In this document: piece by piece, positions 38,836 to 64,000 of the stretch
How positions within the stretch are numbered: the first letter of the stretch is position 1
Layout: each line of letters starts with the position of its first letter
Made by a program: the position numbers and the translations under genes
Notes under the pieces: model-generated
What the model saw: the letters and a program-made list of their open reading frames with translations, nothing else
What the model was told of the DNA's origin: nothing
Databases searched by the model: none
Assembly (NCBI GenBank): GCA_032718475.1
Contig: JAUCBJ010001214.1
Location: 1-64,000 of the forward strand
DNA from: Nemertoderma westbladi
Taxonomy: Eukaryota > Animalia > Xenacoelomorpha
Reading direction: 5' to 3'
Length of the DNA: 64,000 nucleotides

Positions 38836-40025
38836 TGTTCGCGCTTTTAGACCTTTAGCAGTTTAACCTGCCAAATTTAGTATTAATTTAGTTTTAAAAT
38901 TTAGTAATAACAAGTATTTGATACACATAAAGCTACATTAGCCGAAGCCAGCCTATGCGCGATCATTCACCCACGGTTAAGGGAGACTGGATTCGGATGC
39001 TCTGACCTTATTGCGGTGTAGGCCTACTGTACTATTCGATTGATCGTTAATATATAATCTCTGACAAATATTATTCACTTTCGGGAAATATTAACAGTTC
39101 CTTTAGGACGTGGCGCTCTAAGTATGTAAACAGAGTTATGACTTACACTAAACACAACGAGATGGCTAATGATTTACGTATAAAGCGCATTCTTTAGGAA
39201 ATGCTTTGTTATCTATCACACTCATGCACACTACCGCACACTGCTGCACACTGATCTGCCGACCTTCACCAATTTTAATCATATATAAGGAGAACAGCAA
39301 CTGACACATGTAGGGCCTATGAAATAGCATTCAATTCACTCCAAAACCACTATAATGTAAGTCGCAATTGCTATATGTAACCGGTCTCTCTAACCTTCAG
39401 TATATCAAGAAGATTGGGGTTTTCTGATTATTTATCGATATTCTCCAAATATAACAATATTCCATCAACTGATAACAATTAATAACAGACAGTAAATAGC
39501 AGTAAATAGCAGTAAAATAATGCGGTGAAAGGTACATATAGCATTTGAGTCTGACCAGTTCGGTTTGTGATGCTGGTTTGATAACAGTTATACGTTTCTA
39601 TGATCAAAGCCGTTCTAATGTTTGGCTAAAGTCTGAAACACAGAATAATTCCACAGCCGATGTTCTGGGCTCAGGAAAAAAGGTAAACAAAGACCATAAT
39701 GCATTGCGCGATTTCCCAGAGGCTTCTGTACAAATAAAATGAAAATCGCTCTGATTGGTCGAGCCGAACAAAGAACAAAGAAAAGCTCTATGTGGACATA
39801 TCAGCTGATAGATGTCGTCATCTGAACTACACGGTATCAAGAGTATTTTGGCATATTGCGGCATAAAATCGCTAGTTATATCCGCTAAAGTACACATACA
39901 GAAAAATGGCTTTTTATGTCCACTAAAACACCTACACAGTAAGAAAACAGCTTTTTATGTCCACTAAAACACCTACAGAGTACTTGCGGGAAAAATGACT
40001 AGCTAGATCCGCAAAAGCCTTTACA
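38836..40025 (-). repeat. 3' LTR of copy A (~1.19 kb)
   Basis: Minus strand TGTAAAGG...CGCGAACA, preceded by the purine tract ctgggagtgg. Homologous to 53439-54619; homology stops exactly at 38836. Confidence 0.8.
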
Positions 40026-40095
40026 CCACTCCCAGAAAATGGGATTTAATTCTATAAAATATAAAAAATCACAGTAGTCTAAACAGTCTAAACAG

Positions 40096-43000: not shown

Positions 43001-44321
43001 TCCTCGAGCTGATTTTCCTCCGCTTGTTGTTGTAAACGATTGTCTAGGAACTCTTGCAGAGAATAGGTTCGTCCACGTTCGATGTCTTCCTCGAGGTTCT
43101 GGATTTCTCGATCGAACTGGGGTAAAGCTAATTATTTCACCGTTTGGACTTGTTGCTGCAATTTGCGTTTCTCTAAACAATCGTAAGTTCCTTTTCCGAT
43201 CTTCTGCCGAATAGCATCTAACGCGTCTCGTACAACGCTCTCCTCGACTTCGGTGACGGGTTGTATCGGGGTTAAACCGGGACGATTGTATGGGTTGAAC
43301 GGCGATATTAGATGCCTGCGTCCCAATCCGGCTAGGTAGGAAGGGCGGATATCTAGCGAGCCCACTACCGGAGTGCCACCGATTAACTGTTCAGGTAACA
43401 CAAGATCTTTAAATAGTGAGTACAGTTCAGGGGGATCCGTTATACTATTAGGATCAAGCGTTTGAGGTCTCACTAAGGAATGACGAGGTCTGATTGAGTA
43501 TTCCGGAACTCTGATCATGGGTTTATTTAAGGATCGTTTGAGTCGAGCGAGCATAGGTGATACGTCGAACAGGTTTCACTCGAAACGTGTAAAACTGTGT
43601 TTAGCGCAACGTCTCCGCGGATGTTTATGTCTTTCCATTTGCTGATTGGGTCTAGGGCATTCATCGCAGTAATACCAAAGACGCACGTCCTGCAGGGGAA
43701 ACGCGGGTGATCGTTCTCCAGTTTTACAATATTCCTCCATCTGTTCGAAGCTATCTGGGACGACAGGTAGCGGTCGATCGGCGGTAAGATACATCATAGT
43801 GAAATAGAGCCGTTTGAGTTCTATCATAGGGTCATGATGTATACCTTGAGGATATCGAGTTTCTAGATTTTGTTGACTGGCAATATTGAGATATGTTTCT
43901 CTCAAGAATTCCAGATAATCGTTGAAGTCGCTGCGTTTATCCGGCTCTTCAACGTCTTCTCTTTCGAGTCGGTTCCGAATAGAATTCTCGGTTTATCGTT
44001 CCGACTCCGCTGGGTATGATATTTAAATAAAACCAATTCCCTTTCGGTGTCTATATCGTCCGTATCGTGTAAATCGATAGGATGGCCAGTAGTTAAGAAG
44101 TCCATATACGTACCATTACGATGCGTATAGCGAGCGGTGAATTTTCTATAGTCCAATTCACGCGTAAGTTGCTCCTGGGACATCGGCGGTTCGATATAAC
44201 GACCATCGTCCTCCGTAGTAGTTGGACTAGCGTCGCCGCGTATTAAGCTATCAACAAACGCTTGTAAAGGTAGAGTATATCGCTCCCTGATACCAAGATC
44301 ATCTTCTATCAACTCAGTCAT
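40096..44321 (-). pseudogene. Frameshifted copy of the accessory exonuclease-fold/zinc-knuckle ORF
   Basis: Five consecutive ORF pieces (43902-44321, 43576-43905, 43132-43554, 40981-42987, 40096-40944) align colinearly to the 1417-aa ORF. Confidence 0.92.
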
Positions 44322-44364
44322 AGCTGCTATATGAGTTTATCAATATTATAATGAGTTTATAATT

Positions 44365-44512
44365 AGGCTAGCGGGCGTCGCTGCCTACCCCTCTCGGCCC
44401 CCGGACAGTGCAAGATCCTCAGCGCCGATGTACCGTCGTCGCTGTGTTTTTCGCCAACGTAGTAGCTACACAACGACAACGATAACTGGCACAAGTCACT
44501 CCACTGTCCGTC
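44365..44512 (-). promoter_or_regulatory. Putative structured RNA leader upstream of the accessory ORF (copy A)
   Basis: GC-rich nested stems cggacagtg/cactgtccg and cgtcgtcg/cgacaacg, plus the hairpin taggc..agcg/cgct.gccta, conserved in copy B. Confidence 0.5.
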
Positions 44513-46025
44513 CCAAAGGCTTAGGTTTACTTCAGGTTCTTACTGCAGAGTTAGGGCTACTTTCACAATTGCGACTCGCTACTGTAAACACACTTTAGTA
44601 GTAACATTCACCTATAAACGCACAAATTCCACACAACTGTCACAAATTGTACACATTCGGGCCATTTGTCCGTTAGTCAAGTGCCTTCCAGAATGCCACG
44701 TTATTATTATGTATCCTTGGATACTAGCAGTGTGCTATTTATTCCTTATGCTATTCAATGGGGCAAGCTTTCTATTGTTCTTTTAACTAGCTTCTAATTC
44801 TAGCGTGGTTGTTGCTATGGTGACATTATGGAAAGCTAGCGGTAGAATTAGGGTAATTCCCATGCATACAGATCTGGGATGCTATTTAATAGTAATTCTT
44901 TAATTGTCAATATCCCCTTTATACATGATTTTATGAATTTTATCGGCTATTGACTATATATTGGAGATTCTCGCACACTAATATACTTAATAGGGTGAAT
45001 CTCCGCTCCCATGATCTATTAATTAATGGATTTTTGGGAATGTTATAAATTGTATAAAAATGACAATTTATCAAATTCATTAAAAAATATGAATTTAAAT
45101 TTATTCCCGTAAATTTTATTATTTAACATTAAATAGACACAATTTTATTCCAGAACATGTCTGGGGACTAGGATCCTGAATTCTAGGAAATTTGTCCTTT
45201 TAAGAGTATCGGTAAGTGCTACGATATCTTAATCGACTAGAATTTTAAAGGATCTAAATTTTAACCGATTTTGATTTATAGATTTTCTAGAGTTTAACTT
45301 GTAAGTATTTACTCTATTGTATTTGTTTGACAGATTTTATAAATATTAATAGTTAATATTTAAGATGGGCACCGGTTTATTCCAGAACTTGTCTGGGGAC
45401 GTTAACCACTGATTCTAGAAATTTGTCTTTCAAGTATATCGGTGGGTGCTGCGATATCTTAATCGACTAGAATTACAGATGGTCAAAGGGTTTAACAGAT
45501 TTATTTTGAGTTTTATGCTACTGTTAAAGGGACATCACGCTACTATATGTATTATTTAATATACGGTATGAGAGCAATATCGCAAGAAGCAATGTCAGTG
45601 AGAAGAGGCAAGTCGTTTCCAAGGTCTACCCAGAGCTTGGTTTAGCCGAGACACGAGGATCTGAATTTTGCATTCCTAATACTCTACTTACCAATAATAC
45701 TTGAATATAGTAGGAGCTTTATTGTACTTTAATAAGTACGGACATTTCATCTTACTGTAGTCACGTATTTATAATGTACTACGGACAGTAAGGAAAGAGA
45801 AAAAAGAATTATTTCTCGCCGTCGCACTAAATATATAATATATAAGTAATTAAGTAATAAGACTAATATATATTGCACTAATCTACTAAATAATCACTAA
45901 AATAACATTCTACTAAATAAAATTAAAGAAAACGATTATAATAAAATTACATAATAATACATACATAAATATAAAATAATAAAAATATATGAAATAATAT
46001 AGTCACACACCCACTCCAGACGCTG

Positions 46026-49000
46026 TTACGTTGGGGAGTCCCTAGATGTTTGTTGGATTAGGGAGGTGGTTGTGGGAAGAGTATCTTGCCTTCCATAGTT
46101 TCCGGAGAGTTCTCTGTCTCTTTCCAGTAAACATAAACGACCAACTGGGCGATTGAGCTGCTGCGTCTCGAAGACAATTCCCGGTTTCTTAAAGTTACGT
46201 CGCATGACGACGAGTTCTACCGATCGCACCAAACCATCATCCGAGATATGAGTCTCGATGATACGACCTGTCTGCCACCGCTTACGTGGAAGATCTGAAT
46301 CCACAATAAGGACCATGTCTCCGGCGCTGACGTTTTCTTGCTGCGCAAACCACTTAGTTCGAAGTTGTAGAGTAGGCAGATAATGTTTTTCGAAATGGTC
46401 AGCGAAACGACGGGATAACAACTGCATAAGTTGCCAAGTTTGCCGGCAGTATTCGTCTCCGTCCGTGATTTCCGATCGTGGGAGCATGGCTACAGGTTTC
46501 TTCAGTAGGAAGTGCGCGGGTGTTAGCGCTTCCAGGGAATCGGGACTCGATGAGACTGGCATAAGCGGTCTCTCGTTGAGATAGGCGGCGATTTCCTCCA
46601 TTAACGTCCGCAAAAGTTCGTCGGTGAGATACGCGCGGCACGGCACTATAAAGTGAAATGCGGTCTTCACGCTTCTGATTAATCTCTCCCAACTTCCTCC
46701 CCACCAAGGGGCGTCGGCGGCGTTGAAGGTCCAGCTAGACGCTGTTACCCTTAGCTGATCGTCCACCTGTCTTTGGTTCCAATCTTTGACGTAAGCCTTG
46801 ATTTCATTGTTGGCACCAATGAAGTTCGTTCCCTTATCAGATCTCATCGTGTTGCTAGTTCCAAAGCGAGCGATCTGTCGGCGTAAGCTCAATATGAAGC
46901 TATTGGTAGATAAATCGTTCACCATATCGAGATGGATAGCTCTACAAGTCATACAGACAAAGATGACACACCATCTCTTGACTATAGTCCTAGCACGATA
47001 TACTTCAATAGGGCCAAATAAATCCACACCGGTATTAGTAAAGGGTGGTTCATAGAAGCTTACTCGTTCCCTAGGTAATTCTGCCTCTCGCTGTGTTAAA
47101 GGCCTACTGAATGCTTTCCTACAGGGTATGCAGTTCCTAAGAACTTGGTTCAGAGCTCTACGGGGTTTATAAAAATAATAGTGAGTTCGAATTTCGCTAA
47201 GAACTCGTTCTCTACCAGCATGATAAAGCTTACTGTGAACATCTACAATCATCTTGATTTGTATCTCAAGATTTCTAATGAGTATGGGAAACTTAGTGTC
47301 AAAGGATAATGGAGCATTAGTTAGTCGTCCTCCAACGCGTATTAACCCATCTATCATTGTGCTAGAGAAACGATCCCTTAAGCGCATCTGTGGATTTCTC
47401 AACAACAGGAAATACTTATCGGAATCCTCATAGCATTGCAGGAGTCTCAGTATCTGCTTATTGGTTTCTTCATGCTCCTGGTAACCGATCTTCTCCTTCA
47501 GGAATCTGTCTGATATCTTGTATTTGGGAAGATCTTTAACAACATGGACCTGCGCAGATGTCCGTGGAGCGGTATCACTAGTGGTCTTCGTCCTGGAGTA
47601 GTGATGATGAAAACATCGCTTTAAGTATGTAACGGCCTTACAGCGCCGATTCCAGGAACTATAGTGATGTATCGCTCTCTGCAGGAGGGGTGAGAGTCCT
47701 TGCGAGACGTCTGGTATTCCAGATTTCCAATCTCTCTCTCTGATTTCCACAACAGACTTATTTGTGGCTGTGGGTTTCGGATCCAAAGCGTCGTCTCCGG
47801 AAGTGTGTAGTACAGACAGCTCTATCGCGGGTTTAAATAACTTCGATTTACTCGCCCGGGTTTTAGGTTTGACTTTCTCCGCTCCCTTGGCTTGTCTAAT
47901 CTCCGCCGTAGTAAGATGAGGAGGCCATTCATCCTCTTCGTTGCTTAGGAAGTCGGGTCCACCTAACCAGTCTGGAGTATCTATCAGTTCTTGTGGAGTT
48001 GCTCCCCTGGAGGCGATGTCGGCTGGATTAATCGTCCCAGGGCAATGTCTCCATTGATCTATCTTCGTGCGACTAAGTATAATGGCTACTCTGTTGGTAA
48101 CAAAGACGCTGAACTGACAGACTTCATTGGTTATATACTCCAACACGAGTAAAGCATCGGTCCAATAGACAGTTTTCTCCAGGGGATAGTCGATCTGTTC
48201 TGTTACATTCCGGCCGATGGCTGTAGCGTATAGAGCCGCTTTTAACTCCGCTCGAGGAACTTTCAACTTGTTGTTTATCAAGGCCTTAGAGGTAACCAAG
48301 GCGACCTTAATTCCATCCGGAGTTTCAACTCTCAGGTAGGCTACTATACCTATTCCCATGTCGCTGGCGTCTCCAAACACATGGAGTTGATAGGCGTACG
48401 TGGGGAGAACATGACCAAAATATGAACGGGAAATTATAAAGTTCTCGATGGATGGTAGAGAATCTTCCCATTTCATCCACTTCTTTAATAGTTCTCCCTT
48501 AAGTGGATAGTCCCATGAGTGGTTTTCAAGCCACATTTGTTGTACTAAACTCCGAGCAATCAATATAACTGGGCTAATAAATCCCAATGGGTCGAAATAA
48601 GTGCTCAGGATACTTAAACAAATCCGTTTAGTCCGAACTGGATTATCTCGCTGTTTTAGCTGGAAAAACAGGATATCTCTCTCTGTGTCCCATTTCAAAC
48701 CAAGCGTCTTGGTTTCTGGAAGATCGTCCTTGATTAGGTCTAGATCTTTAACTCCTCAGTCTTTTACCGGGATTGATTCCAGAAACTCACGGGAGTTGCT
48801 GGTGAATTTAGTTAATCGAAATCCACCTCTTTTCAAGCACTCTACCGTTCCTTTGGCGACATCAATGGCTTCTTCCACTGATGGGAGGGACTTTAAATTG
48901 TCGTCCATATATATATCCCGTTTGATGTTGTCGATAACCTCTTTAGAGAAGGCGTCCCGGTTGTCATCAGCAGTGGTGCGCACTACTGAGCAAGCGTTTG

Positions 49001-49720
49001 AAGGGCTCGAGATGATCCCAAAAGCCTGGATGGTCATCCAGTACTCCACCGGTTTCTGGTTGAGGTCTCCTTCAGGCCACCACAGAAATCGTAGGCTGTC
49101 TCGATCTCTATCCAGCGCCTTAACTTGTGAGAACATGCCTTCTATATCGGAGGCGAAAGCGATTGAATATTGTCGTAATCTTAAGAGTATTCCCAACAAG
49201 GATTGTAGTAAGTTGGGTCCTGGCAACAACTCGGAGTTAAGGGATTGGCCCATGTAGAGGGCGGAGCCGTCAAATACTACCCGGACTTCATTGGGTTTAC
49301 CGGGTTTGGGAACGTAATGATGTGTTAAATAGTACGTTCTCTCAGTTATGGGTGTTCCTTCCGGTACTCGATCCGCATATCCCTTGTCAATGAATTTCTT
49401 CAGCTGGGTCTTGAACATCTCCTTAGCTGAAGCATTTGCCGTAAGGCGTCGATGTAGTTGCGCAATTCTCTTCTCCGCCAAGGGTCGGTTGTTTATAAAA
49501 TTGGGTTCTCGCCGTCGGAAAGGCAGACCAATCTCATATCTACCTTGATCTTTAAGAAAACGTGTAGTTGTTTCCTGTATCTGCTTGGCTCTTTCTTCTT
49601 CTACCGATAGGGCCTTATCGTAGGAATTAGGCTCTACAGCCTCTTGAGTAAAGAATCGTACGGCGTGTTCATCACGAGTCTTCGCGTTGTAGCGATCTAT
49701 CACTTCATTCAGTTCGTCGC
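46026..49720 (-). pseudogene. Bel/Pao pol: RT, RNase H, integrase; one in-frame TGA at 48756-48758
   Basis: RT VRVVFDGS, GPNLL, SDIEGMFSQV, IYMDD. RNase H LHVFGDAS, PRAELKAA, WTDA. Integrase HHCC, GVDLFGP, SDKGTNF, WERLIRSVK. Confidence 0.93.
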
Positions 49721-52125
49721 CTGAAATCGTTTCAGTTCGATCGCCCATCTCGATCTTAAATGTTTTGGGTCCGGGGGTGAGGACCTTGTAAGGCCCCTCG
49801 TATGGGCGTTCAAATGGCGTCCGGTGGGCGTCGCGCCAGACGAAAACGTAGGTAGCGTCGTGGAGGTCCGGTGGAACCGACGACGAAGTCAGTCCGTGGT
49901 GTGACGTCGGTACCGGAGCGAACCGCCCGACCGTATCCCGGAGTTGAAGGAGGATCGTGGACGGCGAGTGCTGGGCGCCCGTAGCCGGCGGAAGGAACTC
50001 GCCCGGAACGGTGAGGGGGGCACCGTAGACCAGCTCGGCAGAGGAGGTCCCCAAGTTGTCCTTGGGAGCGGTCCGGATTCCGAGGAGAACCCACGGCAAC
50101 TCGTTGACCCAATCGGGGCCGGTGAGCGAGGCCCGCAAGGCGGACTTTAGGTGGCGGTGGAAACATTCCACCAGTCCGTTCGCCTGCGGGTGGTAGGCCA
50201 TGGTGCGGTGCAGTTGGGTGCCCAGCAGCTGGTTGACGGCGGACCAGAGCTGGGAGGTAAACTGCGAACCGCAGTCGGAGGAGAGATCCATGGGGACGCC
50301 AAACCGAGATATCCAGTTGGAGATGAGAGCCCGGGCGCAACTCTCGGTGGAGGTCTCGGTGAGAGGCACGGTCTCTGGCCATCGAGTGAACCGGTCTACC
50401 ATCGTCAGAAGATGAGTGAACCCACGCAATGGTGGTACAGGGCCGACCAGATCCACATGGATGTGGTCGAACCGGCGGTGGGGGGTGGCGAAGGTGCCAA
50501 GGGGCGCGCGGACGTGGCATTGCACCTTGGAAGACTGGCAAGGGATGCAGGTCTTCGCCCACCTCTTTGCGGAGGCCGTGCCACACGAACCTGTCGGTGA
50601 CGAGTTTCTTGGTGGTACGAGCATTGGGGTGAGACAGGCCGTGTAGGGCATGGAAGACGCGCCGTCGCCAGGCGACGATGGGTGTCCGAGAGAAATGTCG
50701 CAAAGTAGAGTGGCGTTGGCAGGGGCGAGCGGGACGTCTTCCAGTTGGAGGCCGGACACGGCGGAGCGGTAGGTTGGCAGCTCGGGGTCGGCGAGTTGGG
50801 CAGCCGCCATAGCCATGTAGTCGAGGCCAGGGAGGAGGGTTCGAACCGCGCTGACGGTAGTCCTGGAGAGCGCATCCGCCACACAGTTGTCTTTGCCAGC
50901 GACGTGTTCGATCGCCGTGGTGAACTCGGAAATATAGGCGATGTGCCGTTGTTGCCGATTCGACCACGGGTCGCTGATCTTGGCGAATGCGAATGTCAGG
51001 GGTTTGTGGTCTGTGTAGGCGGTGAAGACACGGCCCTCCAGGTAGTACCGGAAGTAGCGAACAGCGAGGTACAGCGCGAGGAGTTCCCGGTCGAACGCGC
51101 TGTACTTCACCTACGGGGGTCGAAGTTGGCGGCTGAAGAACGCCAGGGGGCGCCACGAGTCGCCGACGAGCTGTTCTAGAATAGCGCCCACTGCCGTGCC
51201 GGATGCGTCCACGGTGAGCGCCGTCGGTGCGTTGGCGTTGGGGTGGGCGAGCAACGTGGCGTTGGCGAGGGCTTCCTCGGAGTTCCAGAACGCCGCCGCC
51301 ATGTTGGGGGTCCAGTCGAGGGACTTGGGTTTACCGGCAAGGGCCGCGTAGAGGGGCCGCATGATGGCGGCGGCCGCGGGGACGAACCGATGATAGAAGT
51401 TCACCATCCCCACGAACTCCTGCAGGCCCTTGATGGTGGTCGGCTGGGTGAACTCCCGGATGGCGGAGACCTTGTCGGGGAGCGGGATGGCGCCGTGGGC
51501 CGAGATTTGGTGGCCGAGGAAGTCGATGGTCGACCGACCGAACTCGCACTTGGCGAGGTTGCTCACGAGGCCGTGTTCTTGGAGGCGTATGAAGAGCTGA
51601 CGGAGGTGGTCACAGTGTGGTGTTCCTTGGGGGACCGACTCGTGACGAGGACGTCGTCTAGGTAGACGAAGAGGAAGTCGAGTCCCTGGCACACCGTGTC
51701 CATCAGTCTCTGGAAAGCCTGGGCCATGTTCTTCAGCCCCAACGGCATTCGAAGGAATTCAAACAGGCCGAACGGGGTTATAACCGCGGTCTTGGCGATG
51801 TCGGCCTCGGGTACGGGGATCTGGTGGTAGCCGCGCACCAGATCGATCTTAGAAAAGATCTTCGCCTGAGCCAGTCTGGAGGAGAAGTCCTGGATATGGG
51901 GGATGGGGTACCAGTCCGGAGTCGTGGCGTCGTTGAGGCGTCGGTAGTCGCCACACGGCCGCCATCCACCCAAGGGTTTAGGGGCCATGTGGAGGGGTGA
52001 CGCCCAGGGACTGTTGGACCGGCGGATGATCCCCATCTCCTCCATCTTCCGGAACTCGTCCCGCGCGATCTCGAGTTTGTCTGGAGGCAGACGACGGGCG
52101 CGGGAGTAGACCGGGGGTCCCTGTA
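49718..52125 (-). mobile_element. GC-rich Ty3/Gypsy pol fragment (RT, RNase H, integrase), frameshifted, no LTR visible
   Basis: [81 protein letters not shown]. Confidence 0.93.
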
Positions 52126-52590
52126 AATAATAAACAATATGTATTTCTTATTATAGGAGTGAAACTCGATATATTAGTCGAATTTATATATTTTATATTC
52201 GAAAGACAATATGACTCAATACTTACCTACTTACGTCGATTAATTTATCGACCTACCATATTTGTAAATATATCAAACTTAATGTTGTTTGAAAGGTCAT
52301 TTAATGCTTGTCTAGTCCTACCGGAAGTGACTCAACGAACTTTATTATTTTATATTATATGATGAAGTTGATCTACCCTTAATTAATTTCATTAATTTTT
52401 TAGTTAGATTGTTTATCGCATTTAATTGTATGTAGCAAGTATTTAATATCGACGTTACCTTTAATCGTTGAAAGATTGTATGCACCCTTTTCCATACAAA
52501 TTTCCGAAAAAACTCAATATTGTGTTATTCATAGAACGATTGTTGAACTTGTACGTAATTTTAGGGAACGGTTTTGCTGCATGAGAACGC

Positions 52591-53438
52591 GAATGGATCA
52601 TAACCATCAATAAGGACAGATTGAGAACTGCGAATGGATCATAACCATCAATAAGGACAGATTGGGGAACTGCGAATGGATCATAACCATCATTAAGGAC
52701 AGATTGGAAAACTGCGAATGGATCATAACCATCAATAAGGACAGATTGAGGAACTGCGAATGGATCATAACCATCAATAAGGACAGGTTGGAGAACTGCG
52801 AATGGATCATAACCATCAATAAGGACAGATTGGGGAACTGCGAATGGATCATAACCATCAATAAGGACAGATTGTGGAACTGAGTATGGATCATAACCAT
52901 GAATAAGGACAGATTGGAAAACTGCGAATGGATCATAACCATCAATAAGGACAGATTGGAGAACTGCGAATGGATCATAACCATCAATAAGGACAGATTG
53001 GAGAACTGCGAATGGATCATAACCATCAATAAGGACAGATTGGAGAACTGCGAATGGATCATAACCATCAATAAGGACAGATTGGAAAACTGCGAATGGA
53101 TCATAACCATCAATAAGGACAGATTGGAGAACTGAGTATGGATCATAACCATCAATAAGGACAGATTGGAGAACTGAGTATGGATCATAACCATCAATAA
53201 GGACAGATTGTGGAACTGAGTATGGATCATAACCATCAATAAGGACAGATTGGAAAACTGCGAATGGATCATAACCATCAATAAGGACAGATTGGAGAAC
53301 TGCGAATGGATCATAACCATCAATAAGGACAGATTGGAAAACTGCGAATGGATCATAACCATCAATAAGGACAGATTGAGGAACTGCGAATGGATCATAA
53401 CCATCAATAAGGACAGATTGGAAAACTGCCAATGGATC
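52591..53438. repeat. 42-bp satellite, ~20 copies
   Basis: Unit GAATGGATCATAACCATCAATAAGGACAGATTGGAGAACTGC. Confidence 0.97.
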
Positions 53439-54619
53439 TGTTCGCGCTTTTGAAGACCTTTAGCAGTTTAACCTGCCAAAATTTATATGTCTTTTAGTTA
53501 ATTAAAACACCTTTAGCATACGACAATATTTTATGCTAATAAACAAAACATTAGCCGAAGCCAGCCCATGCGCGATCATTCACCCGATGGATACACCCGG
53601 GAGGCTGAATTCGGATGCTTAAATTTTATTATTGCAGTGTAAGGTTGCAGTGTAAACCTACTGTATTATTCGATTGATCGTTAATAACTAATTTCTGACA
53701 GATATTATTGGCTTTCGGGAAATATTAACAGTTCCTTTAGGACGTGGCGCTCTATCTATTTAAACAGAACTAGGACTTATACTAAAGGCAACGATACTGC
53801 TTATGATTAAAGTATAAGGCGCATTCTTTAGGAAATGCTTTGTTACCAATCACAATCATGCACACTATTCTGCCGACCGTCAGTAAATTTGATCACACAT
53901 AAAGAGAGCAGCAATTGACTCATGTAGGTTCTGCTAAATAACATTAGATTCAATACACACCACATTGATATAAATCGCAATTGTTATGTATAGCCTGTCT
54001 CTCTAACCTGTAGTGTATCAAGAAAATTGGGAATTTTGGGTGATTTATCCGTATTCTCCAAAGGGCAATAATTCATCAACAAATCGATACAATTAATAAC
54101 TGACGGTAAATAACAGTACAAACAATATGATTAGTGCAGTTAAATTAAGTGAGTTAGGTAAGGTAACAGTTATACTTTCGATAATTTAAGCAGTTTTACT
54201 GGAGTTCTTCCCAAAAGCCGGTGTTATGGCGAAAAATGGGAACATAACAACAGAATCATATGAAGAATCATATGACTACATAACTATACGAGGATACCAA
54301 CTACCCTTATTCCCCGAAGCTCCCGTCCAACACAGAGGATGAGCATACAGATAGGAAATTCAGTTCAGTAGCTCTGGGATAGGTCAAAATCAACGCCCAC
54401 TCAAATTCTATTGGCTGATACGGACAGCAGGGCTGAGGCAACCTCCCTAAGCTGGTTGGCCGATCGAACAGAACCCAGATACCTTCGTACAGCACATCAG
54501 CCAATAAGCTGGTAGCTTGCACTATTTTTAGCTATAGATCCCTTTTAGAGTATTCTAGCGACCGGGGGGGAACTGGCCAGCAAGGCAAACGAATCAGTTA
54601 TCCCACCAAAGCTTTTACA
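53439..54619 (-). repeat. 3' LTR of copy B (~1.18 kb)
   Basis: TGTAAAAG...CGCGAACA after the purine tract ctgggagcgg. Homologous to the copy A LTR. Confidence 0.8.
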
Positions 54620-54697
54620 CCGCTCCCAGAAAATGGGATTTAAGTCTATAAAATATACAAAATCACAGTTTCTAAAATATAAAAATACTCTAAACAG

Positions 54698-57600
54698 TTA
54701 GTCTTTCTTGCGCGGACGGCGTTTACGCAGTTTTTTAAAGCTAGCAAGAGTCCTTTTCTCTTTGGGGCGAGCCACTTTACAAGGAGGGCTATAACTCCTG
54801 GGTGAAGGGTGCAATATGATTGCATCAGAAGGTATGGGATTACGATCGGTATATCCGCCGGTCGAAGTACCGGGTTGATTGACATCAACGTCCGGGGAGA
54901 GGGGTCTAACGGCTTTGAGAGCTCGTTTCAAGACAGCCGCTCTTACGGGTCCTTTACGAGTGGTCTGAACGAGGGCCGTGGGTGGACCATAGGCAGTTAG
55001 AAACTTCCTTGGTTTAATGGTTCTTTCCAACTCGCGTTCGCGGGCTCGGTACTCGTAAGGCCGTCGATATACTTCCTGTAACTCGGGGTGTGAGTTGACA
55101 AATAAGTCTCCATAGGCAGGGTCTTGACGGATAAAGTTTATTAAGTTGTAAGAATAGATGTCACTCGGATTAATGCTCCTAAGAAATTTGCGTACATATT
55201 TGGTTGAAATACATTCTCCAACGCGCTTCAGTAGTTCATAACTTGATAGGCGTGATTTCTGCTCGACGGAGGCAAACAAATAAGGATGGAACGCATAAAC
55301 TCCTTCGTAAGCGCGTCCAGGGTAATAGCGATGGCGTGAATCACAATGTAAATCAGCGTTCGCTTCCCAAGCTCTGATATAACGTAGTACAATCATTTCA
55401 TCTACCCTCTCTAAATCATGATTAAAGGGACAATCAAAGCTGGCGTGTCCTTTTAATTGACAATGATGGCATTGAGTCATAAATTGGGGGCAGACAGCAA
55501 AAATGTGCAAATTATTAAGCCGACAATATGCACAATAGATTTCCATCGACGGTTGCTCGTGGAAATAGGAACAGAGATCGTTGGTGTCCATAGACGTAAT
55601 ATGGTCTCTCGATGCGCACAGCCGACAACGTTGTCGAGAAACATAATTGGCATGGCGATAATCATACGCAGTAAGACACTGTGGACCTTGATACCATTCC
55701 AATATGTAGTCGCTATCGCTACTCCGAGACGTGGGGGGCTGAATCTCTTCAGATTCTAAACATATGGGTTCGTCTTCCCCTTGTATAGTTGAGGTAGGCA
55801 TGGCCGTCTCCTCAAGTGGACCTACCGTCTGAATTTCCACGACAGAATAACCTGTGGGGATTCGAGGTCTTTGGATAACAGAGGAGTGCATGTTTATTAT
55901 ACAAATGTCTTTGAAAATAGCAAATCCAGCGCTATCTAACTTCTCCGCAGCCGAGTCTCTTAAGCTGAGCTTGGTCAAAGCGCGGTCTTTGAATTGGCTA
56001 TCCACGTTGCGAAACGGGGTTAAAAATCGTCGGAAACATTCAAAGCGGATGAATTTATTATGTTCATCTAGCTTAGCGAGTTTGGTCCCAAGGATTAATG
56101 GATGGGTGCGTATAGTACGACTGCACACATCGGCTAGCCAACCGGAAAGTGCGGTGTTTTCGAAGATCGTGTAGATAGCTAAGGAGGGGCGGAGTGGAAC
56201 ACTCATGAAGCTATACACGGCGCCAGGTGCGGTCAACGGTCCGTCAAAGTATAATCGAGAATAATGGTCTCCGTATACTTGTTGATAGTTGATGGGATTT
56301 CCGACCTTGAAATTCCATCCGTATTCCTGAAAAGCAAGATGTCCGATGGAAGTTCGTTGCACCTTTGTAATGTTGCTAGACGCATTAGCATACATGGTGC
56401 GAAAGAAACCTTGGCCTTCGGCCCAAGGAGCTATCAGCTGAGTATCCACGAAAGGATAGGGGATATTTTCCATATTCCGAAAGTCGTTTTGGAGATCTCC
56501 GTAAACAGCTGAGCCGATTTTAATGATTCTTTCGTTGAATAACATCTCGAGAACGGGCTGGGGTAACATCGATCCATCGATACCCATGGCCGGTTTGCGT
56601 TCGGTGTCAATGACGTAACGCTGCGCGAGTTCGAATTGTCCGTGTCGGAGATTCTTTTGCGTTTCGGTGAGAGTTTCAAAGGAATAATCTATCACGTCGG
56701 AACACGCTCGCGTAAACACGTGAGTGGAACCAGCTAATCCGCGTATGTGTATCATGCGCGTAGTTCCTAATTCTCCGATTGGAACGCTACCTTCGTTATC
56801 GTAAGTAACAACGCCATACATCTCAATGATATTAAGAGTTTCATTCCACTCTTTGGTGGCGTTCTCGAGGGTCATCCCTACCGGATGCCACAAGGTGGCG
56901 CATTGATTAGCGTCAGGGAGATCACTATACTTCATGTATCGAGTGGTATACGTCTCCACATTTCCATATCTTTGTATTTTCTCCTCCTCGAATAATACGT
57001 CTAGATTCCAATGGTCTAATCGAGTTTTAATAAATCCATCGAGATTATAAGGAGGTTCTGTATCCTTCTCTATTCGAGAAACGTTATATGGTTTTCGAAA
57101 TGAGTTTACCTTTACTAACTGATCCAGATGTTTTTGCAATTGTTCGAGTTCTACAATGTCCAGAGGATTTATTAGTGGTAGAAACTTTAAATTATGCGTC
57201 GGATCTTCTGGTTTTACCATATAATATTGAGTCAGATTAACGTAATAAGGGTGGTCTTTAATTCCATAAAAAGAGTTCTGTAAAGGTCTAGCGCGTATGT
57301 TGACATCGTGTACCATACGACGGACAAGATCCGCTCGATTGTCTGGAGGTTCAACGAGTATACCGTCAACTCGAGCGGCCTCGATTGGCGGACGCTGTAA
57401 CATAGGAGCGTCAGCGATAAGATTTTGCGATCTTATGCTGATATCAACCGGTTGGGGTTGTATCTTTGCAAAAAGTTTGTCTCCGAAATGCGGAACCATC
57501 GAGGGATGATGGACGGTTTTAGAGTAGAGATCGGTTATGAGTATCTGAGCTTCGGGTTGGGCTAAAGCGGCTTCTTCTCTCTCATCCATTTCCGTATGTT

Positions 57601-58951
57601 TCTCCTCTAGTTGATTTTCCTCCGCTTGTTTCTGTAAGCGTTCTTCTAGAAACTCCTGTAGAGAATACGTACGTCCAAGCTCGATGTCCTCTTCGAGGTT
57701 TTGGATTTCTCTATCAAACTGCGGCAAGGCTAACTCTTTCACCGATTGGACCTGCTGCTGTAATTTACGTTTCTCTAGAAAATCCTGTGTTCCCTTTCCG
57801 ATTTTCTGTCGGATGGCGTCTAAAGCGTTTCTGATGACACTCTCCTCGACTTCCGTGGCAGGTTGTATCGGAGTTAATCCTGGCCGATTGTAAGGATTAA
57901 ATGGCGATGTTAGATGTCCGCGTCCCAATCCGGTTAAATAGGATGGTCGAATATCTAACGAACCTACCGCTGGAACACCACCGATTAACTGCTCGGGTAA
58001 CACCAAATCTTTGAACAGTGAGTATAACTCAGGAGGATCAGTGATACTGTTAGGATCAAGAGTTTGAGGTCTCACTGGGGAATGAGGAGGCCTGACCGAG
58101 TATTCCGGAACTCTGATCATGGGTTTATTTAGCGATCGTTTTAGACGGGCGATCGTAGGTGATACGTCGAACAGGTTTCGCTCGAAACTCCCGTAAGTAT
58201 AACGCGTAAAACTGTGTTTAGCACAACGTCTCCGCGGATGTTTATGTCTTTCCGTTTGCTGGTTAGGTCTAGGACATGAGTCACAATAATACCAAAGACG
58301 TACGTCCTGCAGAGGAAACGCGGGTGATCGTTCTCCAGTTTTGCAATACTCTTCCATTTGTTCAAAGCTGTCCGGGACAACAGGCAGTGGACGATCTGCG
58401 GTAAGATACATCATGGTGAAATAGAGTCGTTTGAGTTCTACCATGGGATCGTGATGTATACCTTGAGGATATCGAGTCTCTAGGTTCTGTTGACTGGCAA
58501 TATTGAGATAGGTTTCTCTCAAAAATTCCAAGTAGTCGTTGAAGTTGATACGCTTATCGGGTTCTTCAACGTTTTCTCTGTCGAGTAGGTTGCGAATAGA
58601 GTTCTCGTGTTCTATTCTCGGTTTATCATTACGATTCCGCTGGGCATGATATTTAAATAAAACCATTTCCCTTTCGGTGTCTACATCTTCCGTATCATGT
58701 AAATCGGTAGGATGGCCGGTAGTTAAGAAGTCCATATACGTACCATTACGATTCGTATAGCGAGCGGTGAATTTTCTATAGTCCAATTCACGCGTAAGTT
58801 GTTCCTGGGACATCGGCGGTTCGATATAACGACCATCGTCCTCCGTAATAGTCGGATTGGCTTCACCGCGTATCAAGCTATCCACAAACGCTTGTAAAGG
58901 TAGAGTATATCGCTCCCTGATACCAAGGTCATCTTCTATCAATTCCGTCAT
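54698..58951 (-). CDS. Accessory 1417-aa protein: Cys/His cluster, coiled coil, DEDDy/DnaQ-like 3'-5' exonuclease fold, zinc knuckles, basic C-terminus
   Basis: Uninterrupted ATG-to-TAA ORF. VVTYDNEG (Exo I), LEMLFNERIIKIGSAVYGDLQNDF (Exo II, WRN/EXD-like), FVDTQ, SIGHLA, GPLT...YSFMS. Knuckles CRLCASRDH, CAYCRLNNLHIFAVC, CHHCQLKGHASFDC. Confidence 0.8.
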   Translation of the reverse strand: MTELIEDDLGIRERYTLPLQAFVDSLIRGEANPTITEDDGRYIEPPMSQEQLTRELDYRKFTARYTNRNGTYMDFLTTGHPTDLHDTEDVDTEREMVLFKYHAQRNRNDKPRIEHENSIRNLLDRENVEEPDKRINFNDYLEFLRETYLNIASQQNLETRYPQGIHHDPMVELKRLYFTMMYLTADRPLPVVPDSFEQMEEYCKTGERSPAFPLQDVRLWYYCDSCPRPNQQTERHKHPRRRCAKHSFTRYTYGSFERNLFDVSPTIARLKRSLNKPMIRVPEYSVRPPHSPVRPQTLDPNSITDPPELYSLFKDLVLPEQLIGGVPAVGSLDIRPSYLTGLGRGHLTSPFNPYNRPGLTPIQPATEVEESVIRNALDAIRQKIGKGTQDFLEKRKLQQQVQSVKELALPQFDREIQNLEEDIELGRTYSLQEFLEERLQKQAEENQLEEKHTEMDEREEAALAQPEAQILITDLYSKTVHHPSMVPHFGDKLFAKIQPQPVDISIRSQNLIADAPMLQRPPIEAARVDGILVEPPDNRADLVRRMVHDVNIRARPLQNSFYGIKDHPYYVNLTQYYMVKPEDPTHNLKFLPLINPLDIVELEQLQKHLDQLVKVNSFRKPYNVSRIEKDTEPPYNLDGFIKTRLDHWNLDVLFEEEKIQRYGNVETYTTRYMKYSDLPDANQCATLWHPVGMTLENATKEWNETLNIIEMYGVVTYDNEGSVPIGELGTTRMIHIRGLAGSTHVFTRACSDVIDYSFETLTETQKNLRHGQFELAQRYVIDTERKPAMGIDGSMLPQPVLEMLFNERIIKIGSAVYGDLQNDFRNMENIPYPFVDTQLIAPWAEGQGFFRTMYANASSNITKVQRTSIGHLAFQEYGWNFKVGNPINYQQVYGDHYSRLYFDGPLTAPGAVYSFMSVPLRPSLAIYTIFENTALSGWLADVCSRTIRTHPLILGTKLAKLDEHNKFIRFECFRRFLTPFRNVDSQFKDRALTKLSLRDSAAEKLDSAGFAIFKDICIINMHSSVIQRPRIPTGYSVVEIQTVGPLEETAMPTSTIQGEDEPICLESEEIQPPTSRSSDSDYILEWYQGPQCLTAYDYRHANYVSRQRCRLCASRDHITSMDTNDLCSYFHEQPSMEIYCAYCRLNNLHIFAVCPQFMTQCHHCQLKGHASFDCPFNHDLERVDEMIVLRYIRAWEANADLHCDSRHRYYPGRAYEGVYAFHPYLFASVEQKSRLSSYELLKRVGECISTKYVRKFLRSINPSDIYSYNLINFIRQDPAYGDLFVNSHPELQEVYRRPYEYRARERELERTIKPRKFLTAYGPPTALVQTTRKGPVRAAVLKRALKAVRPLSPDVDVNQPGTSTGGYTDRNPIPSDAIILHPSPRSYSPPCKVARPKEKRTLASFKKLRKRRPRKKD

Positions 58952-58993
58952 ATCTGCTATCTGAGTTTATTAATATCAATATGAGTTAATATT

Positions 58994-59137
58994 TAGGCAA
59001 GCGGGCGTCGCTGCCTACTAGGCTTTGCCCCCGGACAGTGGGTTTCTCAGCGCCGATGTACCGTTGTCGCGGTGTTTACGCCAACATGTAGCAACAGCAC
59101 GACAACGATAACCGGCACAAGTCCCATCACTGTCCGT
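58994..59137 (-). promoter_or_regulatory. Putative structured RNA leader upstream of the accessory ORF (copy B)
   Basis: Same nested stems as copy A. Mismatches on the plus strand become G-U pairs on the minus (sense) strand. Confidence 0.5.
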
Positions 59138-60770
59138 CCCAAAGGCTTGAATCCACTTGAGGTTATCTCAGTAGAGTTAGGGCTACTTTACAATTGCGAT
59201 TAGCTACTGTAAACACACTTTAGTAGTAACATTCACCTATAAACGCACAAATTCCATACAATCATTACTTACTGCACACATGCAGGCCATTTGTCCGTTA
59301 ATCAGTGTCTTCCAGAATGTCACGTTATTACTATGTATCCTTGGATACTAATAGTGCGCTATGTATACTCTTATGCTACGCAATGGGCAAGCTTTTTATT
59401 GTTCCTTTAACTTGCTTCTAATTCTAGCGTGGGTGTTGCCATGGTGACATTATGGAAAACTAGCGGTAGAATTAGGGTAATTCTCATGCATACAGATCTG
59501 GGATGTTATTTAATAGTAATTCTTTAATTGTCAATATCCTCTTTATGCATGATTTTATAAATTTTATCGGCTATTGACTATATGTTGGAGATTCTCGCAC
59601 TCTAGTACACTCAATATGAATCTCCGCTCCCATGATCTATTAATTACTGGAATTTTGGGAATGTTATAAATTGCACAAAATGACAATTTATGAAATTCAT
59701 TTAAATATGAATTTAAATTTATTCCCGTGAATTTTATTATTTGATGTTAAATTGACACAAATTTTATTCCAGAGCATATCTGGGGACTTAGGATCCTTAA
59801 TTCTATAAAATAGTCCTTCTAACAATATCGGTAAATACTGCGATATCTTAATTGACTAAAAATTTTAAAGGATCGGGATTTTACAGATTTTAATAAATAT
59901 TAAATTAATATTTAGGATGAGCACCGATTTATTCCAGAACTTGTCTGGGGACGTTAACCACTGATTCTAGAATTTGTCTTTCAAGTATATCGGTGGGTGC
60001 CACGATATCTTAATCGACTAGAATTACAGATGGTCAAAAAGTTTAACAGATTTATTTGCGATTTACGCTACTGTTAGAGGGACATCACGCTACTATATGT
60101 ATTATTTGAAATAAGGTAGAAGAGCAATATCGCACGAAGCAATGTCAGTGTGAAGAGGCAAGTCGTTTCCAAGGTCTACCCAGAGCTTGGTTTAGCCGAG
60201 ACACGAGGATCTGAACTTTGCATTCCTAATACTCTGCCTACCAATAATACTTAAATATAGTAGTGGCTTTATTGTACTTTAATAAGTACTGACATGTCAT
60301 CTTACTATAGTCTCGCATTTATAATATAATACGGACAGTAAGGAAAGAGAAAAATAATTATTTCTTGCCGTCGCACTAAATATATTATAAGTAATTAAGT
60401 ACGTAATAAACACTAATATATTGCACTAATTTACTAAATATTCTAAAATAACATTTTACTAAATAAAATTAAAGAAAACGATTATAATAAAATTACTTAA
60501 TAATACATACATAAATATAAAATAAAAAACAAATATAAAATAATATAGTCACACACCCACTCCATATGTTATTATGTTATGGAGTCCCTAGATATTTGTC
60601 GGATTAGGGAAGTGGTCGTAGGAAGAGTATCTTGCCTTCCATAGTTTCCGGACAGTTTTCGGTTTCTTTCCAGTAAACATAAACGACCAGCTGGGTGATT
60701 GGGTTGTCATGTTACTTTCTCCGCTCCCTTGGCCTGTCTACTCTCCGCCGTGGTAAGATGAGGAGGCCAT

Positions 60771-63700
60771 TCATCTTCTTAAGAAGTTGGATCCACCTAA
60801 CCAGCCTGGAGTATCTATCAGTTCTTGAGGAGTTGCTCCTCTGGAATCGATGTCGGCTGAATTAATCGTCCCAAGGCAATGTCTCCGTTGATCTACATTG
60901 GAGTTAATATCGTCATTATCTGAGGAGTATGGTGTTCCCTCAGTTAGTTCGTCCACTTCACTGCTCTCCACTTCCCAACCATTTATCTGGCATATTCTTT
61001 CTGGTGGTAGTCTCTCTTCGAGAGTTCTGCGGGAAGGGCCAGTAAAGTACCAACCTACTCTAGTTCTTACCGCATAGGTTTGCAGTGGCTGTGGTTGAGC
61101 AGGCCGTTTCTCTAATGTTTCGAGCGCCTCGTGCGCGTTTTGGCCGATGAGTATTTGCACTCCAGGATAATCTGTCTGGAATCGAGGTATCTTAAGATGT
61201 TGGATGCTCTCATCCTCGTCCCAATTATAAAGGTCTGCTTGAGTAGTAGCAAAGTTCTTTATAGCCACCATTTTTACTGACCTTACCTTGTGTTCCTAAC
61301 TTATCCGGGGGGGTGGACAACACACCTACATAGTAATCTGCCGTTAGGGTAGATTTCCAAACCTGCATAATTCCTGACATATTCAATTTAGTCCGGAACT
61401 TGGGTTGTCCAGCAAAGATATCTTCGGCTAGTTCTTGATCGATGAATGTTCCTGTGCTGCCGGAGTCAAGGAGGGCGTTCACTATGTAGCTTTTGTTAAG
61501 ACCGTGAACTCTTACTTGAACTACAGGAAATTCTCTGATTCCTACGTTGGAAGCTGGAGCTTTCCAAGATGGTTGTTTGGCGAAAGTAGTTGGGGGAAAC
61601 TCATCGTTGATGTCCTTTTCGTAAGTAAGTGCTCGATACACTGCGGTATTTATTAGATAACAGGATTCATTGGCGTCGGAGAATTCGTCAGTATAGAATC
61701 CTTCCATCTCAGACTCTTGATCAGTGTCGTTTACGTCACTGAATTGGACATGTAGTTCGGGCTCACTTACCTGACTCAGTTTGTCTCGTTCGAACTCACT
61801 GTGTAACAAGATGTGATGTTTCGCGCCACACTTTGCACACTTTATGTCGGAGTAACAGGTTCGCCGTTGGTGTCCTGATCTGAGGCAATTATAGCATAAC
61901 CGCTTATTCCACAGGACTGTACGTCTGTCTACAAGGGATTTCTTTAGAAATTCAGCACACGCACTCAAACGGTGGGGCCCGTCGCACAGCGCACATTTTG
62001 GTTTGATGTTACTCACCTTAACTTGGTTAACGTTATGCACTCTCATTCTTTCTTCGGGCTTTCTTCCGTGAATTCTCTTAGGAGACGTAGGAGGAGTTGT
62101 TGTTACCTGTTCTCTCCTATCACTGGTTCGAGACTTGTATTTACTTACGTCTTTATAGGTCTTGTTGTCATAGTCAGATTTTGCTGTGTCTTTCCCGCTG
62201 TCCTCTTCTTGAGAAGCTTGGCTTTCGCCGTCATCAGTATAACACACTGGTATTATCCTTCTCCTAGAAACGGGTTTCTCACTTACCTTATTTTCCGATG
62301 TTTTCTCTCTGGACTGCCTTATGAGTTGTAATTTTACTTCACTATCTAAGAAGGACATGAGATCAGCCATGGTAGGACTTCGTCGTTGTTGTTCATTCAT
62401 GTACAACACTTTCTTGTCCCAGCGTGTACATACTCCACCCTTTGGTAAAGTAGAGACTACGGCTCCAATAACCATGGAACTCTGAAATTCATGCGACTTA
62501 CCTAACCAGTCCAGTTGTCTACAGATCTCTTGAATTTCATCGGAAAACTCTATAATCCCGCTACTAAGGAAGTGTCAGGGGGCTACTAATTTTGCATACA
62601 AATACTTAGCTATGTTATCCTTGTTACCATACCTGATGTTTAATGTATCCCAAACTTGTCTTAATCCATCTGGATGTCCAATAAACTTTAACGCCATTAA
62701 CTTGGGAGGTCCTTCCAAGCACTTGATGAGGAATCTAAGTTTCTCTCCGTTAGATAGTACAGAGTTCTGTATGCTATCTTTGTAATATTCGTTGAAAGGT
62801 AACCATTTCATCTCATCTCCATTGAATTTGACGATCTCTCCCACTTTGACCGCTTGGTGGGCTTCTGTTCTAGCCATCTGACGCGTAAAGCTTTCTTGGG
62901 CCATCGTGTTATTTAATATCGAATTATCGGTATATAAATTTCTCGGATCATTATCAGGTCTATAGGGAATATCATTAATAACAGGTCTATAATCACCCTT
63001 AATAGGGTTTGCTATAGGAGTTTCAACTTCACTAGCAGTATAGATGCGTGTAGGCTCCACACCTTGCGCATGTAATACTTCAGACCTAACAGGTTGACAC
63101 AATGTTACAGGGGGTATTGGTATGCCCTTTTGGATATTGACTAATTTGTCGCGTTCTAGTGCGATACTTTGCTGCACTTCTTGCAACTCTGCTCTACCTT
63201 CCCTCACTGTTCCCTTAAGTTGGTGGACAGTCTCCTGCATCTGTCCTAACAGGAGATTCATCCCCCGCCGTCCCTCTTCTACCCACTCAACCGCCGAAGC
63301 GGGAGTCGCCAACATAGTAGCGGGCTGACGCGGGACGAAGGGAGACAAATTTTTGATTTCTCTCTCTGCTATCTGGACAGGGATATTCTCTTGGACTGTT
63401 CCACCGGGTACAGGCAGTGTAGTACTATGTAAAGGGAATTTAGAGTTAAGCTCTGGAAGTACAGGGGTCTCTAACACAGAAGTGACTTTGGGAACGACAG
63501 GCCTAATTATTTCAGGCTCATCAACTATTGTAGGGAGTCTTTTGACCTTAATACTTTGGGCTGTAGGTTCTATACTACTCAAGTCTGTGCTAGCTAGCTG
63601 TCTTCTAACAGCTGGGGGCAAATCAGGCAATTTGCGACGGTAAGATGTTTTTCTACGCCTACTTAGATGAGATCTATTTCCTCTGCCTTCAGGATCGGTG

Positions 63701-63993
63701 GTCTCGCCTTCCTCCGAGGATGTGTATCCCTGGCGCTTGGGAGTAGATTTTCTCATCATCTGCATTTGATTAGCAGTGAACTGTTTATTTATACTGTCTT
63801 GCGTCTCTTGCAGATTTTCCAACTCCAGTTGGATAGTCTCCTCAGAAGCTCTCCGTTCTGCTTCTGCCACTGCTGCTTTTCTTTCTGCTTCTGCTTCTGC
63901 CGCCTTTCTTTCGGCTTCTGCCTTCTTTCTTTCGGCTTCTGCTTCTTCCGCTTTTCTTTCGGCTTCTGCTTCTGCCGCCGCTGCTGCTGCCAC
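60771..63993 (-). pseudogene. Bel/Pao gag plus aspartic protease (in-frame stop at 62575, frameshift ~61280)
   Basis: KFNGDEMKWLPF...EKLRFLIKCLEGPPK...LNIRYG (Pao gag). CALCDGPHRLSAC, CYNCLRSGHQRRTC, CAKCGAKHHILLH. Protease ALLDSGSTGTFI. Confidence 0.9.
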
Positions 63994-64000
63994 CTTTCTT

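Follow-up and report, generated by a model that had tools for sequence, protein, structure and literature searches.

Long terminal repeat (LTR) retrotransposons whose third gene encodes a nuclease-like protein have been described from rotifers, where the Juno1/2 and Vesta2/5 elements carry an RNase D-like DEDDy open reading frame 3 (ORF3), common to Athena/Terminon retroelements (PMC5408684; available part of PMC6431247). An earlier note on the DNA studied here had correctly pointed to these ORF3s of rotifer Gypsy-like elements (PMC5408684). A shared pool of DEDDy genes has been suggested for the rotifer Gypsy-like and Penelope-like elements (PMC5408684; available part of PMC6431247). The DnaQ-like domain is a known accessory domain of LTR elements in the accessible text of PMC6338049, and the Dada DNA transposons of Laccaria and Ectocarpus are mobile with a DEDDy domain too, but there it is inserted in the DDE transposase (PMC3706591, as far as its available text goes). 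For BEL/Pao elements, only env is named as a third gene in PMC8742986 and in the available part of PMC3118150. In this study, we describe an ORF3 with a DEDDy-type fold in a BEL/Pao element of Nemertoderma westbladi, located on contig JAUCBJ010001214.1 (positions 1 to 64,000; this whole stretch of 64,000 nucleotides is called the window below). The concept of an accessory nuclease ORF3 is already known; the BEL/Pao host, the architecture, the mapped splice and the candidate RNA target are new. The main text of PMC3118150 has 0 occurrences of the word 'exonuclease', and no exonuclease ORF of a BEL/Pao element was found elsewhere in the literature; Repbase, Dfam and GyDB, together with subscription journals and bioRxiv supplements, lay outside this search and may list one.

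Compared with the rotifer proteins, by description only, the ORF3 of the window is likewise a non-env gene behind pol with an RNase D-like DEDDy fold, no transmembrane segment and an altered acidic motif. Whereas the rotifer ORF3s belong to Gypsy-like or Penelope-like elements and have the motif DEED, it resides in a BEL/Pao element and probably has DEDE, and the rotifer ORF3 text contains no triple CCHC knuckle, 690-residue N-terminal region, splice junction or cis stem-loops. The element resembles env-bearing BEL/Pao elements (PMC8742986; available part of PMC3118150) in its gag-pol markers, polypurine tract (PPT), LTR of up to 1.2 kb and third gene behind pol. Unlike in those elements, however, the third gene encodes a soluble nuclease-fold protein and not env, and the parts sum to about 15 kb, by arithmetic from two partial copies, versus the 4.2-10 kb stated for BEL/Pao.

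The window holds two copies of the element, a left and a right one, and ORF3 is a real, selected accessory gene that is integral to it. At positions 54698-58951 the forward strand is closed, while the reverse strand, the sense strand of the element, has one open frame of 1417 codons. The earlier note had assigned a 4.25-kb ORF to both copies; this holds for the right copy, whereas the left one is broken by premature stops at the codons matching 258, 406 and 1123 and by deletions of 13 nt and 15 nt. A comparison of 1403 codons between the copies counts 416 synonymous and 163 non-synonymous changes (synonymous divergence dS 0.67, non-synonymous divergence dN 0.052), and the resulting dN/dS of 0.076 at such a dS shows that ORF3 has long been under purifying selection. 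Regionally, the ratio is 0.069 in the exonuclease core, 0.066-0.094 in the N-terminal part and 0.038 in residues 1091-1250, where the zinc knuckles lie and the constraint is strongest. The gene and the parts of its product are as follows.

54698..58951 (-): ORF3 of the right copy, intact, 4254 nt from ATG to TAA, 1417 amino acids
40096..44321 (-): ORF3 of the left copy, broken, with 3 stops and 2 deletions
56882..58951 (-): N-terminal region of ~690 amino acids, of no known family, with a Cys/His cluster at residues 223-243 and an E/Q/K-rich part at 401-500
56102..56869 (-): putative DEDDy-type 3'-5' exonuclease fold, with D718, E720, D819 and, in the favoured register, Y927 and E931
55430..55627 (-): three CCHC zinc knuckles, the first with a long H-to-C spacer (zf-CCHC_3, E=0.0039)
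54704..54736 (-): basic tail resembling a nuclear localisation signal, predicted from sequence and the same in the left copy

All the motifs reported by the earlier note were recovered, namely YDNEG (from Y717), LEMLFNERIIKIGSAVYGD (K811-D819), FVDTQ (834), the three knuckles and KKLRKRRPRKK (1406-1416). So were the lack of an obvious signal peptide or transmembrane segment, upheld by a simple hydropathy test in which no 19-residue segment exceeds a Kyte-Doolittle mean of 1.27 and by the acidic N-terminus, and the location of the gene in the env position between pol and the 3' LTR, in the same collinear order in both copies. A hydrophobic ORF of 27 codons upstream of ORF3 in the right copy was discarded since it is not conserved in the left copy.

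The element was delimited by self-comparison of the window, ORF translation, Pfam-type domain searches and contigs of public sequencing runs. Positions 40014-45275 match 54608-59894 at 86%; the match also runs on across the spacer as far as the pol end and, on the 3' side, enters a common repeat. Both copies have the layout pol end, 1.6-kb spacer, ORF3, short purine tract, LTR, the last being in each case a repeat of about 1.18 kb with TG and CA at its two ends. Judging from its domains, a Pao-type pol (in the order reverse transcriptase (RT), RNase H (RH), integrase (IN)) and a gag, the element is a BEL/Pao element (Belpaoviridae): the left pol has Peptidase_A17 (E=2e-35), DUF5641 (E=8e-20) and an integrase, the right gag has DUF1759 (E=1e-7) and an aspartyl protease, and the RT motifs occur among the BEL/Pao set in the supplement of PMC3118150, as motif matches only. 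Each copy is incomplete: the right one has lost most of pol and has one stop in gag, the left one has no gag and carries a fused fragment of Gypsy pol on the 5' side, and no 5' LTR is present within the 64-kb window.

61225..63999 (-): gag-protease of the right copy (DUF1759, knuckles, aspartyl protease), with one stop near 62575
60600..60895 (-): two short pol remnants of the right copy, matching 47872-48061 and the pol end 46026-46155
46026..49720 (-): BEL/Pao pol of the left copy (RT, Peptidase_A17, integrase, DUF5641)
54620..54627 (-): PPT-like short purine-rich tract GGGAGCGG, at the equivalent position in the left copy as well
53439..54619 (-): 3' LTR of the right copy, 1181 bp, TG..CA
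38836..40025 (-): 3' LTR of the left copy, resembling the right LTR in its 3' 680 bp only, at 76%

The public runs confirm these boundaries. In run X3 the contig cover drops from ~450,000 to 1,500 across 53425-53469, matching the LTR end, and in one contig of run X5, 1677 foreign letters precede a match that begins exactly at 54619, as expected of a 5' or solo LTR. Parts of the stretch occur in 6 of the 7 listed runs from four studies (five of organism A, one of organism B) and in many variant contigs, so the family is multi-copy. None of the runs holding it is recorded as RNA, an outcome that carries no weight as to expression. The 5' halves of the two LTRs (54150-54600 and 39550-40000) can barely be aligned, while spacer, ORF3 and LTR 3' half are 76-93% alike; by sequence comparison, this would be promoter-region turnover between subfamilies. 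In place of the 5' part of the left copy lies a GC-rich (63%) Gypsy RT-RH-IN fragment (49720-52120, -), which starts abruptly behind an acceptor-like TTTACAG and reads in frame into the left-copy RT. A 42-bp tandem array at 52583-53438 (20 copies, 94%) begins exactly where the right LTR ends.

The central domain of ORF3 (residues ~695-950) almost certainly adopts a DEDDy (DnaQ-like) fold, a conclusion drawn from five weak, partly independent signals taken together. The protein of the window on its own matches ribonuclease D (TIGR01388, E=0.011, the best of two NCBIfam matches). A profile of the window domain with its orphan relatives (A2) has its best PDB match in the EXO domain of Egalitarian (E=0.0014), followed by EXD2 at E=0.059. 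A hidden Markov model (HMM) built from the relatives only gives both window copies 47 bits, whereas none of 656 other ORFs and 200 shuffles scores above 3.1. In the Atlas, relative P0003 is placed with DNA_pol_A_exo1 plus zf-CCHC at 0.92 and relative P0002 adjoins DNA_pol_A_exo1 clusters at 0.86. Finally, the AlphaFold2 model of the domain has the order alpha-beta3-alpha-beta-alpha, and its structural matches are DEDD nucleases throughout, which make up nearly all VIA rows: diDNase Z 9.3 (root mean square deviation 5.0, 158 residues aligned), RNase D 8.6, Nibbler 8.3, EXD1 8.1 and Egalitarian 7.8. Several points speak against the assignment. Each of these signals is weak when taken singly; the single protein has no match in Pfam, nor in PHROG or the PDB; the model has a predicted local distance difference score (pLDDT) of 40 and a predicted TM score of 0.42 and was built with one RNase D row in its alignment, a first model having reached pLDDT 30; and the best Foldseek match has E=0.002. 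The earlier note had placed the protein in the RNase D/EXD/Egalitarian/Nibbler branch and had proposed AlphaFold with Foldseek as a check; the placement is borne out by TIGR01388, the Egalitarian profile match and the structural matches, and the check returned DEDD nucleases, at the model confidence and Foldseek value just given. RNase D, Nibbler, EXD1, Rrp6, Egalitarian and diDNase lie within about 1.5 Z of one another and are not separated, so these tied scores do not pick out a source subfamily, and descent from Egalitarian is not shown. Like the Egalitarian EXO domain (9uju, 9rvy), EXD1, Nibbler and RNase D, ORF3 combines the fold with ExoI and ExoII acids in register and PL-x6-Y before ExoIII; unlike them, it has no detected LOTUS, HRDC or dynein-light-chain region, and identity is 7-15%.

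As judged from the alignments, the ExoI DxE and the ExoII D of the DEDDy signature are present in ORF3. D718, E720 and D819 align with D561, E563 and D621 of Egalitarian (profile A2; numbering from the available part of 10.1101/2025.08.03.668247), are invariant in alignments A2 and A6 and are the same residues and codons in both copies. The register of ExoIII is ambiguous because two PL-x6-Y motifs stand 14 residues apart: register 1 gives Y913/S917, with no acid, and register 2 gives Y927/E931, with a D in neither. We favour register 2, in which D718-E720-D819-Y927-E931 would probably form a D-E-D-E-y site that could be active. It is obtained by BLAST and phmmer with the closest relative P0002, by L-INS-i and G-INS-i, and by A5 and A6; moreover, P0002 itself has YxxxE, and the aligned pair in this register is YIYCENT versus YTIFENT. 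The other register implies a pseudo-nuclease scaffold that has lost its ExoIII acid (S917) and only binds RNA or protein, like EXD1 or Exuperantia, whether its target is the RNA of the element itself or the silencing machinery. This we regard as possible but doubtful. Register 1 is given by A1-A3, E-INS-i and the HMM of the relatives, and BLOSUM scores prefer it against P0003 (7 vs -2) and P0008 (8 vs -6), all of which weighs against an intact site. On the other side, P0002 prefers register 2 (14 vs -1), register 1 places two prolines in the ExoIII helix, the addition of RNase D yields register 2, and the long helix of the AlphaFold2 model spans 922-949, though the model was given register 2. 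An early reading of ExoIII as lost was accordingly demoted after realignment.

Behind the exonuclease domain follow the knuckles (residues 1109-1127, 1140-1154 and 1161-1174), the profile of which matches the nucleocapsid protein of HIV (E~0.001-0.003). In front of it, the ~690 N-terminal residues have no match in Pfam, PDB, PHROG or NCBIfam, while the search of 1.84 billion representatives (cut-off E<=0.001) covered residues 518-1417; half of the protein is without assignable function, which counts against the role proposed below. That search gave two matches: P0002, which was hit in the central domain, and P0003, hit in the knuckles. Each of them aligns in the other region too, and a third cluster, P0008, was reached from P0003. 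The three orphan clusters share one layout, an exonuclease-like domain, the same triple of knuckles (found in P0002, P0003 and P0008) and a conserved segment behind them. Their members (P0002, P0003-P0007, P0008-P0021) have 575-650 amino acids, lack the long N-terminal region and come from ENA contigs of 2.5-11.5 kb; P0003 and P0008 retain YxxxD. They are likely ORF3s of related elements. Word-based protein searches with P0001 residues 560-1250 and with A1 (length-limited) gave no match at E<=0.001, and DNA scans for relatives confirmed none of the candidate stretches in viral contigs (0/299, 0/2, 0/1 and 0/133) or prokaryote genomes (0/238 and 0/66). The one candidate of 347 confirmed in a metagenome pattern scan is a bacterial RNase D gene and not a retroelement. 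Euglenozoan proteins of an Atlas cluster also combine DNA_pol_A_exo1 with zf-CCHC, in the order exonuclease then knuckles (T. brucei RNase D, 7c42, Z 7.8); they differ from ORF3 in being cellular and of 381 amino acids, the likeness is one of features only, and the architecture is probably convergent.

ORF3 is likely expressed from a spliced message. Joints were taken from contigs of four public runs, with 12 of 49 matches listed for X5, and among the matches listed, run X5 has two joined forms linking LTR and spacer (59168-54016 and 59149-54008), with a loose contig end seen as well. In the sense of the element, both leave the LTR at 54008, directly before GT, and enter at 59166, directly behind the AG of CTAAC..AG; the second variant resembles the left-copy subfamily. 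The chance background for GT combined with AG is 0.0036 per position. In skipping gag-pol, the joined form is laid out like an env-type subgenomic splice, and it is strongly suggestive of a spliced ORF3 message: whether the contig derives from cDNA or from a retro-copy of spliced RNA, a splice is implied in either case. Against this, the joined form occurs in one of the four runs among the matches listed, and X5 is only guessed to be DNA. A deletion with two-letter microhomology could also have created it, yet would have needed to strike GT..AG beside a branch point. The signals concerned and the RNA structures around them are the following (a slash marks the splice site; z, fold score of the strand named).

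54002..54010 (-): splice donor CAG/GTTAGA in the LTR, GT at 54007; AG/GTTAGA in the left LTR too
59167..59180 (-): splice acceptor with CTAAC branch point upstream of ORF3; CTAAC..CAG at the equivalent place in the left copy
59925..60042 (-): stem-loop repeat 1 in the predicted intron, sense z -4.5, antisense -0.9
59761..59880 (-): stem-loop repeat 2 in the predicted intron, sense z -2.2, antisense -1.8
45373..45491 and 45141..45260 (-): stem-loop repeats of the left copy, sense z -4.0 and -3.1, antisense -0.1 and -2.7
59018..59150 (-): long GC-rich hairpin in the predicted 5' untranslated region (UTR) of the ORF3 message, z -5.0, 0 of 200 shuffles

A further X5 joint, 55779-58589, was not accepted as a splice because the right copy has no GT donor there. 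The LTR donor could also join a conserved TTTGGCAG acceptor near the LTR end (54007-53473, -, a 535-nt intron; same place in the left LTR); none of the four joints listed is of this intra-LTR kind. The depth of X5 contigs is higher over the ends of ORF3 and over 54010-54144, behind a TATA-like box at 54174, an observation that we did not count as evidence.

The 1.6-kb non-coding spacer that precedes ORF3 is 90% identical between the copies, well above what is expected from a dS of 0.67, and the 994 nt in front of the acceptor are predicted to form a more stable structure than any of 20 shuffled versions (z -5.3). Each copy contains a unit of ~120 nt twice, and the four units share an ~85-nt stem-loop and a small hairpin: 97% of cells are paired, versus 29-46% in slid controls, repeat 1 and repeat 2 differ at both positions in 4 of 33 pairs, and the sense strand is the more stable one in all four. 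The covariation is suggestive; it stems from one duplication event (two independent units), and in the pairs-with-change measure 253 of 500 shuffles do as well, and both points weaken it. Located in the predicted intron, the stem-loops would be kept only in unspliced genomic RNA. The 5' UTR hairpin (~125 nt) at the start of the ORF3 exon is also present in the left copy (44391-44526, -, z -5.6), with 53 pairs kept in both copies and one two-sided change, and could serve translation control or be a small-RNA precursor. Rfam matched neither the stem-loops nor this hairpin, apart from a chance mir-23 row at E=0.69.

We tentatively propose that the ORF3 protein is an accessory RNA-binding nuclease of the BEL/Pao element, which may bind and trim or protect the RNA of the element itself. 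Translated from the spliced LTR-to-ORF3 message, it would enter the nucleus by means of its basic tail and bind structured element RNA through its knuckles and DEDDy surface. If it recognises the duplicated intronic stem-loops, it would act on unspliced genomic RNA only and might favour the stability, export or delivery of that RNA, a job like that of Rev/RRE or of Egalitarian. The EXO domain of the latter binds RNA stem-loops without requiring its catalytic residues (available part of 10.1101/2025.08.03.668247). As a point against the proposal, the pairing of protein and stem-loops is one that we infer, and the stem-loops may instead serve Gag or host proteins as signals for packaging or dimerisation. 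The earlier note had left the choice between element-RNA handling and anti-silencing; the spliced form and the confinement of the stem-loops to unspliced RNA favour the former, whereas the latter draws on family resemblance alone.

In the anti-silencing alternative, the protein would trim or bind PIWI-interacting RNAs, small interfering RNAs or their precursors, or compete with EXD1, Nibbler or Mut-7 of the host, and would thereby blunt the control of the family by small RNAs. Such a role has been put forward for the rotifer ORF3s, whose study at the same time saw no clear link of DEDDy ORF3 with copy number (PMC5408684). Nibbler and EXD1 are among the tied top structural rows, as equally are RNase D, Rrp6, Pol I and diDNase; the Atlas offers an EXD1-like cluster at 0.77 for P0002, as a lead only, and the family is very abundant in the host runs. 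A pure suppressor leaves the intronic stem-loops unexplained. We consider this alternative unlikely, if still a serious one. A more ambitious form of our own proposal, drawn by analogy and rather unlikely, is that the BEL/Pao element has independently built a circuit in the style of complex retroviruses, in which the product of a spliced accessory gene, put together from a captured DEDDy nuclease fold and zinc knuckles, reads the duplicated stem-loop that unspliced genomic RNA alone contains and thereby governs the export or germ-line delivery of that RNA. In complex retroviruses, the Rev/Rev response element (RRE) and Rex/Rex response element (RxRE) systems consist of a basic RNA-binding accessory protein made from a spliced message and a structured element contained only in unspliced RNA. 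ORF3 has no sequence relation to either, and the working analogy is a hypothesis.

Alternatively, the protein could be packaged via its nucleocapsid-like knuckles and act in a replication step, by trimming the 3' ends of primer, RNA or cDNA or, in a variant, by removing immunostimulatory RNA like the exonucleases of arenaviruses and nidoviruses. The match of the knuckle profile to HIV nucleocapsid and the probably intact acidic site are in line with this, and a role in 3'-end processing has been suggested for the ORF3 of rotifers, for Terminons and for Dada transposases (PMC5408684 and the available parts of PMC6431247 and PMC3706591). Most BEL/Pao elements, however, replicate without such a protein (PMC8742986), and a separate spliced protein of 160 kDa with a basic tail suits a regulator better than a particle enzyme; taking both variants jointly, we find this improbable. 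That ORF3 is a captured host gene or independent nested element, useless to the retrotransposon, is largely refuted and very improbable: the genomic context of the orphan relatives is out of view and the window has no intact element with both LTRs, but the collinear order from pol end to LTR in two long-diverged copies has no inner LTR or other boundary, contrary to the nested element that the earlier note had allowed for, and both the low dN/dS and a dedicated splice out of the LTR of the element point the same way.

Elsewhere in the window lie a two-ORF long interspersed nuclear element with endonuclease and RT (2018-5599, -), a single-exon rhodopsin-family G protein-coupled receptor gene (9415-10593, +) and an Sds3-like ORF (31545-32258, +). 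Arrays of a 17-bp satellite occupy 5693-7609 and 11167-23421, the second being broken twice by a duplicated RT-containing fragment that is also present at 27607-28012. At 35586-35886, a 149-bp sequence is perfectly repeated in inverted orientation across a 3-nt spacer, possibly as an assembly artefact or a foldback.

In summary, this BEL/Pao case, with its unrelated-looking and much larger architecture, extends the repeated capture of nucleases to a third order-level group of retroelements. Beyond what the rotifer cases offer, it has evidence of purifying selection over a long time, a splice junction that has been mapped and a candidate RNA target in cis. With one protein fragment and two short RNAs, the choice between own-RNA handling and anti-silencing can be tested directly. 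If true, the Rev-like circuit would be an analogue of Rev/RRE in a family thought to have gag, pol and env only.

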